Assembly: GCA_951406725.2 (NCBI GenBank)
Contig: OX597829.1
Span: 52,824,001 to 52,888,000, forward strand
Direction: 5' to 3'
Source: Octopus vulgaris
Taxonomy: Eukaryota
DNA length: 64,000 bases
In this document: one piece after another, positions 22,839-23,237 of the stretch
Position numbering within the stretch: position 1 is the stretch's first letter
Layout of the letters: each line of letters begins with the position of its first letter
The notes under the pieces: model-generated
Databases searched by the model: none
Seen by the model: the letters and a program-made list of their open reading frames with translations, nothing else
What the model was told of the DNA's origin: nothing
Position numbers and translations under genes: made by a program

Positions 22839-22943
22839 ATATACCGAAGTAAACACATAAATGTGAAACAAGGTGGAAAAAAAGAGTACTCAAATACCAG
22901 TGGTAGAGTAATATGCTTTATTTAAAGCAGCAGAAAATTCAAC

Positions 22944-22991
22944 AAAATCTGTTACTCTGAGTTTCTCGTTGCCGTTCATCAGACAGTTTTT
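22944..22991 (-). ncRNA. Minimal type-I hammerhead ribozyme, left arm
   Basis: CUGU-CUGAUGA-A-CG-GCAA-CG-A-GAAA-CUCAGAG-UA-ACAG. Confidence 0.7.
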
Positions 22992-23126
22992 GCTAGAATG
23001 GAACCGATATATCAATTCAATCCAGGCTCTTACAAATGCTACACCTTTAAAAAAAAAAGAAAAAAAAAAAAAGGTGTAGCGTTTGTAAGAGCCTGTATTG
23101 AATTGATATATCGGTTCCATTCTAGC

Positions 23127-23174
23127 AAAAAGTGTCTGATGAACGGCAACGAGAAACTCAGAGTAACAGATTTT
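23127..23174 (+). ncRNA. Minimal type-I hammerhead ribozyme, right arm
   Basis: UGU-CUGAUGA(23136-23142)-A-CG-GCAA-CG-A-GAAA(23153-23156)-CUCAGAG-UA-ACA. Confidence 0.65.
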
Positions 23175-23201
23175 GTTGAATTTTCTGCTGCTTTAAATAA
23201 A

Positions 23202-23237
<36 letters not shown>

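Follow-up and report, generated by a model that had tools for sequence, protein, structure and literature searches.

Near-strict pairing of a short and a long end in inverted insertions of a Hydra-clade Penelope-like element of Octopus vulgaris suggests that both cut strands prime on one RNA

In twin priming of L1 retrotransposons, both cut strands prime on one RNA, producing an inversion with a microhomology joint whose segments do not overlap and derive from a variable internal site. Inverted ends are also described for Penelope-like elements (PLEs), in which inverted, 5'-truncated copies carry a one-sided tail of 30–40 bp (PMC8557442, legend to Fig. 2; PMC3846280), and self-priming on an antisense template has been proposed from inversion joints (PMC3846280). 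The Hydra clade of PLEs is marked by RWK, DKT, CxCx5C, CxxC and CxH motifs, and its length is given as 'generally <3 kb', so that length is no defining exclusion (Craig et al. 2021, PMC8557442); members include Hydra-2_aMil, with hammerhead stem I ctgt/acag and a cut after gta, and Penelope-3_HM, with helix III actc a gagt (PMC8557442). Minimal hammerheads have been described as opposite-strand pairs 100–700 bp apart, metazoan ones being reported not to cut as monomers and to cut little as dimers (PMC4209133). For PAc (Poseidon of Anolis), the enzyme cuts and extends both strands in vitro, two start sites define the tail, a dimer was modelled and the start site was reported to be no different between the two strands, whereas the hammerhead motif cleaved only with protein and was dispensable for insertion (PMC11167929). 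Drosophila Penelope has an internal promoter within its pseudo-LTR (pLTR; PMC2377424).

The window, meaning the whole stretch analysed here, is 64,000 nt of O. vulgaris DNA (contig OX597829.1, positions 52,824,001–52,888,000). A first-pass annotation made from its letters alone had noticed a near-perfect palindrome with 138-bp arms and an A-rich spacer. The palindrome is present (22911–23048 and 23070–23207; 138 nt, 97% complementary, 4 mismatches, 21-nt spacer), and its outer 5 bp, with one of the four mismatches, are chance pairing of the left arm with the (TA)n flank, trimming the element-derived arms to 133 bp with 3 differences (22916–23048 and 23070–23202; perfect runs of 11, 14, 35 and 70 bp). 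That annotation had not mentioned the 72-nt tail of the left arm, a C-to-G change in stem I at 23132 or the genome-wide repeat status. The parts of the locus are as follows.

22758–22843, no strand: left flank and insertion target, a (CT)n then (AT)n microsatellite, read from the sequence
22844–22915, minus strand: 72-nt tail, left arm only, ending at the family's long end, ..ACTYYGG followed by TATATA
22916–23048, minus strand: long-end arm, pLTR part, 133 bp
22937–22999, minus strand: hammerhead motif of type I whose stem I is extended, cleavage predicted between 22953 and 22952
23049–23069, minus strand: A10-G-A10 spacer, head-to-head joint with a 3-nt TTT/AAA overlap
23070–23202, plus strand: short-end arm, 133 bp, ending at the family's short end, ..AAATAAAG followed by TATATA
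23119–23181, plus strand: second hammerhead motif, C-to-G at 23132 in stem I, predicted cut after 23165
23203–23256, no strand: right flank, a (TA)n run followed by (GA)n, with ~69 nt of complementarity to the left flank

In full copies of the family, the sequence past the tail's long end continues for ~70 nt to the start of the open reading frame (ORF). The A-rich spacer is likely the family's own U-tract, presumably miscopied by slippage, judging from the family's upstream sequence and from two other copies (L009 and L029) that join at the same tract. The flanks 22758–22826 and 23203–23271 are 96% complementary over 69 nt and could lengthen the hairpin past the tail. In both arms the short end is immediately preceded by AATAAA, at 23195–23200 (+) and 22918–22923 (−). 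Elsewhere in the window, a 127-aa frame at 25607–25990 (−) resembles what we take to be the GIY-YIG end of another PLE, and 51603–52007 (−), 41207–41800 (−) and 27225–27617 (+) hold fragments that presumably resemble a mariner transposase and two LINE ends. A dispersed repeat is present as two inverted copies at 20231–20408 and 21597–21774 (178 nt, 84% complementary, 1,188 nt apart), with a further part-copy at 24535–24588. Inspection by eye of the 67 stop-to-stop frames of at least 120 aa in the window, a size that misses short exons, revealed no host gene.

The long arm, used as query against its own 2.8-Gb genome, returned at least 1,174 candidates, and the 40 scored candidates of the family were 97–100% alike. 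Four copies extending beyond the pLTR were fetched; one (L031) has an uninterrupted frame and the other three have broken frames. L031 consists of a pLTR, a 711-aa ORF, a 1.1-kb untranslated region (UTR) and a second pLTR. Its uninterrupted, Hydra-type ORF (L031:2949–5084) contains FDIIDFYPS, YRDD and GVVY..YTG, combining a reverse transcriptase (RT) core with a GIY-YIG-like endonuclease at the C terminus in a single frame. The protein has RWK at 37, DKT at 113 and no DKG, followed by CxCx5C at 562, CxxC at 667 and CxH at 695, lacks Cx2-5CxxC and, compared by eye, agrees with the Hydra alignment. Among 7,991 sequences scored, 1,014 were database relatives, the best 120 of them at 41–57% identity; one relative (P0002) matches GIY-YIG PF01541, and L031 itself gave no Pfam match, for either RT or GIY-YIG, and no PDB sequence match. 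These motifs and the (TA)n target are shared with published Hydra-clade PLEs, as are, in the hammerheads, unpaired bases beside a short stem II and a near-palindromic helix III, actc-N-gagt (PMC8557442). The family differs from them in length, its unit being 3,495 bp owing to the 1.1-kb 3' UTR rather than under 3 kb, and in a stem II of just 2 bp in its commonest variant (PMC8557442). With insertion in (TA)n and a hammerhead in the pLTR, as is characteristic of the clade, the locus is almost certainly a Hydra-clade inverted insertion by its sequence, in line with the earlier suggestion of inverted pseudo-LTR ends of Penelope, and the palindrome is one such insertion, head-to-head and 5'-truncated, within a run of (TA)n. 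The family is new but of an already published kind, and the locus itself is ordinary transposon debris.

Other identities fitted less well. Hydra-1_Obim differs in both hammerhead and protein, by eye against the supplement of PMC8557442. Non-LTR retrozymes (bioRxiv 10.64898/2026.07.22.740005) were rejected, as tandem monomers are absent and the sequence is the pLTR of an ORF-bearing element; a MITE or fold-back DNA transposon was rejected because the outer ends are fixed but unequal and the centre varies between copies.

Counting positions from the predicted ribozyme cut (0), we found that copies end in (TA)n at either +37 (short end, 2,540 exact matches) or +107 (long end, 5,107), with 0 matches for reversed-pattern controls of both junctions. 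The two ends are ~70 nt apart, a spacing that corresponds to the known Penelope 'tail', and the short end also closes direct full-length copies (L031). At the window locus the left arm stops at the long end and the right arm at the short end. To gauge pairing we took, for each kind of site, the first 100 listed, all on one contig (C1), and fetched 90 of the short and 70 of the long ones, skipping, among long sites 31–100, those beside short sites already fetched. The sample is thus the first part of that contig, anchored on exact matches, and the counts cover fetched loci only. After one duplicate was dropped and 2 sites were not recovered, 87 short anchors remained, of which 58 are joined head-to-head to a long end, 3 to a long-type arm that is interrupted, and 24 lack any partner within 40 nt; 2 were scored short–short, one genuine (L177) and one a multiple switch. 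The 70 long anchors comprise 43 head-to-head with a short end, 0 with a long end and 27 unpaired, so that 51 of 157 anchors lack a partner within 40 nt. Removal of 7 shared loci left 94 short–long pairs, two of which (L109 and L110) come from one segment that is duplicated. Another 60 loci yielded 28 short–long pairs, 1 long–other and 31 unpaired, and among 15 longer regions chosen as opposite-strand neighbours, 14 are single inverted insertions of 1.3–4.4 kb (13 short–long and 1 short–short, L262), the fifteenth holding two short–long stubs. Two insertions are genuinely short–short, L177:690–850 and L262, and count against the pairing rule as exceptions. Short–long stubs duplicated with their flanks also occur, 728 nt (L109/L110) and 1,332 nt (L171) apart. 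Scaling 58/87 to the 2,540 short ends extrapolates to ~1,700 stubs, a lower bound; both hammerheads are whole in 36 of the 94 pairs. In the openly accessible literature we found no report of a paired short/long rule.

The layout is that of published inverted pLTRs, with head-to-head arms, a tail on one arm and short joint overlaps, and the two hammerheads on opposite strands recall the pairs of PMC4209133. It departs from the published inverted pLTRs in a tail of ~70 nt rather than 30–40, in fixed ends that both lie upstream of the ORF start and in the prevalence of pLTR-only stubs, the commonest form sampled (PMC8557442, PMC3846280).

The two arms of one locus appear to descend from a common template. 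Minor variants were shared between arms 100 times and discordant 15 times, versus 33 and 135 for shuffled arm pairs (maximum 53 shared in 2,000 shuffles), and five-site haplotypes were identical in 35 of 43 pairs, with 40% expected. Both window arms carry a common change at −73 that no other of the 12 arms covering that position shows. Rare changes were confined to one arm in 106 cases and shared in 20 (8 of these in one locus), indicating that there is little conversion and that conversion is not the cause of the shared variants. Passage beyond −47 was also correlated between arms (both arms in 6 of 94 pairs, p = 1e-4). Arm lengths are frequently unequal: in 30 of 94 pairs the short arm extends beyond the long arm by 10 nt or more on the 5' side, in 14 it is the long arm that extends further, and in 13 the arms hardly overlap. 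Long-arm stops showed no clear clustering at the short site, 13 of 94 falling between +27 and +78. No earlier shared-variant test was found in the openly accessible literature.

The 5' ends of the arms pile up at a sharp edge. Of 188, 60 lie at −47 to −41 and 21 further 5', a density of 0.155 ends per nt in this interval versus 0.003–0.024 elsewhere. A(−46) is the first base of the extended stem I and fits YYANWYY, the initiator consensus, as do 8 of 408 positions. Matches with a letter other than C at −47 number 874; sorting the first 100 listed by hand gave 69 truncations and 31 read-through variants. Read-through copies that carry the usual letters amount to 672. Within these 100 listed matches, 27 of 46 truncations joined to non-TA sequence have G at −47 (p = 2e-7), which is what a copied cap would give, although 16 of the G joints are one joint type whose removal leaves 11 of 30 (p = 0.07). 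Two rival causes of the edge are a weak hairpin (−4.3 kcal/mol) ending at −48, which by its predicted fold could pause the enzyme, and CTAG at −43 to −40, a microhomology hot spot. The window copy passes −46 and ends at the family U-tract, like L009 and L029, which places it among the longer stubs, as both arms extend beyond −90 in only 3 of 94 sampled pairs. We searched for an accumulation of 5' ends at the ribozyme cut and saw none, with only 3 of 188 at +1. These few ends are accounted for by stem I complementarity, and uncut RNA is therefore the likely template. The AATAAA before the short end is a poly(A) signal 80 nt from the putative RNA start, and in the upstream pLTR it would need to be suppressed. 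In the openly accessible literature we found no RNA 5' end mapped from truncations, and none at an initiator-like site.

We consider it probable that these insertions arise by paired priming, in which both cut strands prime on one sense RNA at two fixed sites. The observations behind this reading are the family identity and ORF, the ends at +37 and +107, their near-strict pairing, the shared variants and the −47 to −41 pile-up. The Penelope enzyme would cut both DNA strands in (TA)n, and one cut strand would prime at the long site and its partner at the short one, likely on one sense RNA; a dimeric RT–endonuclease may prime both 3'-TATA ends, with 4 nt of pairing at each priming site perhaps assisting the start. 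The trailing copy would displace the leading copy or stop behind it, most pairs would run off a capped RNA 5' end at −46, and microhomology would join the two cDNA 3' ends. The hammerheads would be carried along, located as they are between the RNA 5' end and the priming sites. The window copy would have gone past −46, both cDNAs ending at the U-tract, and because it ran beyond −46 its template was likely a downstream, read-through pLTR. We tentatively put forward a more specific version: an asymmetric dimer would prime both strands at the two fixed sites, using a single capped sense RNA that begins with the first base of the hammerhead domain. Unlike L1 twin priming, both sites here are fixed and the arms mostly overlap, which yields a palindrome. 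The model shares with PAc two start sites that define the tail, cutting and extension of both strands, an AT-rich target and uncut RNA as template (PMC11167929). The PAc sites lie inside the ORF and were reported to be non-homologous to the target, whereas 4-nt TATA pairing is possible at each site here and, unlike PAc, the family uses its two sites as a near-strict pair (PMC11167929). Because the two strands showed the same start sites in that work, the strict pairing is unexplained by it. Several points weigh against paired priming: shared variants are also compatible with two RNAs from one source gene, a central deletion after insertion could make arms unequal, and joining at short palindromes could produce correlated lengths.

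The first of these points corresponds to a rival that we regard as improbable, with the same element and the same two sites but each cut strand copying its own RNA from the same source gene. Full arm overlap would then need no strand displacement, and shared variants would be expected if one source gene is active at a time; it offers no ready account of the absence of long–long pairs (0/43), of the 13 of 94 hardly overlapping pairs or of correlated passage beyond −47. Self-priming, in which a copy bends back at a short palindrome to serve as its own template, seems to us about equally improbable. The joints speak for it in part, overlapping by at least 1 nt in 61 of 94 pairs, falling at or beside the palindromic CTAG in 477 loci and at TTT/AAA in the window, with arm ends no more than 9 nt apart in 50 of 94 pairs. 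However, blunt joints and joints with inserted bases make up 33 of 94, direct full-length copies (L031) likewise finish at the short end, no tail is present on the short arm, and in 30 of 94 pairs that arm has sequence missing from the long arm. Because each arm has sequence that the other lacks, neither is a copy of the other, barring later central deletion; unequal or non-overlapping arms are hard to obtain by fold-back alone, a later central deletion being one possible source.

Each arm reads CUGAUGA-A-CG-GCAA-CG-A-GAAA-CUCAGA-GUA with stem I on both sides, and the cores (CUGAUGA..GAAA..GUA) start at 22982 (−) and 23136 (+). The annotated hammerhead on each strand is thus borne out at the level of the motif, with CUGANGA, GAAA and NUH in register with putative stems I–III, as in type I hammerheads; the left motif (22937–22999) is identical to the commonest family variant. 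Stem II is, as the annotation had it, only 2 bp with a GCAA loop, namely two C-G/G-C pairs with an A.A mismatch beside them. This is short of the 3–4 bp or more of a canonical stem II (the U variant has 3 bp), A10.1 faces A, G, U or C in place of a G10.1-C11.1 pair, and helix III is not stable as a monomer (pair probability 0.0; self-dimer −9.4 kcal/mol), so that it is of dimer type by prediction; a second sense copy is missing in cis. A loose core pattern fits 12 places in the 64-kb window, so that the core by itself carries no weight; assignment as probable hammerheads rests on stems I and III and a layout common to published Hydra-clade hammerheads. The core pattern has 6,950 matches in the genome. 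Among the 150 listed of 162 Rfam matches at E ≤ 1 there was no hammerhead, and those at the locus were sub-threshold hairpin families only. Core positions vary by 0–3% across the family, position 7 and the GNRA loop being variable. At family position −28 (core position 4), 48 of 112 arms (L035–L224) have C instead of U, and the stem II loop alternates between GCAA and GGAA, both GNRA.

Single arms are predicted to fold non-catalytically (−12.9 versus −6.3 kcal/mol for the left, −11.0 versus −4.4 for the right), and the full hairpin is predicted at −230 to −242 kcal/mol versus −4 to −6 for the hammerhead fold, making the whole transcript one duplex from either strand. The suggestion that a transcript would fold into long double-stranded RNA (dsRNA) therefore agrees with the predicted 133-bp duplex; the alternative offered with it, self-cleavage, does not fit a far stronger duplex, an antisense arm that is transcribed before the hammerhead on either strand and a dimer-type helix III lacking a second sense copy. 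Since each hammerhead follows its own antisense copy, with which it is predicted to pair, self-cleavage from this locus is unlikely. The motif is probably genuine in the parent element and inactive at this locus. Both ribozyme motifs here are probably passengers and, should the site be transcribed, are predicted to be held in dsRNA. A functional cassette, with a transcript that cuts itself or is retained as a substrate for editing or for small RNAs, is accordingly a very poor prospect. The predicted duplex with its perfect runs of 35 and 70 bp, the low variation at core positions (0–3%) and the presence of the family's head-to-head joints in contigs from 2 of 4 sequencing runs that we guess to be RNA would suit it. 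Yet this is one of an estimated 1,700 or more stubs, both its arms have accumulated changes, one of them in stem I of the right motif, the hammerhead fold is predicted to be much weaker than the duplex, metazoan minimal hammerheads were reported not to cut as monomers (PMC4209133), and the 3 of 188 ends at +1 point to uncut RNA as the likely template. The 24 sequencing-run matches listed are all contigs, with no RNA among them, and contigs show neither RNA starts nor strand; in the runs guessed to be RNA, A>G occurred at 35–48 places, close to the 29–42 for G>A, against one diverged copy, so that these counts carry no signal on editing.

The annotation had also read the arm identity as a sign of a recent event, which does not set this locus apart: its arms differ at 3 of 111 scored sites, near the mean of 3.6% over 95 palindromes (140/3,912), and arms are identical in 7 of 44 scored palindromes. 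The window copy is not unusually young. That the palindrome is an assembly fold-back artefact is extremely unlikely. None of the listed contigs from 4 public runs spans the locus, but such short-read contigs break at repeats. The arms differ at 3 sites, their flanks show no relation once past the microsatellites, and the right arm terminates precisely where 2,540 exact junctions place the family's short end. The layout is seen again at 94 sampled loci, and contigs of all 4 runs contain further head-to-head joints of the family.

The value of these data lies in a testable rule, not in the locus. The family bears on how PLEs form inverted ends, a question for which PMC3846280 calls for experiments on self-priming and of which PMC11167929 leaves the steps after initiation unvalidated. 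Its thousands of short copies make sharp predictions: each event should pair a short end with a long one and use a single template, and the RNA should begin at −46. A nearly intact 711-aa ORF is present for reconstitution. If transcribed, the estimated 1,700 or more perfect hairpins would form a sizeable dsRNA pool, about a third of them with two whole hammerheads. If the asymmetric-dimer reading is true, it would replace the antisense self-priming model, transcription starts would be mappable from insertions alone, and the short palindromes would be a genomic record of how Penelope inversions form.
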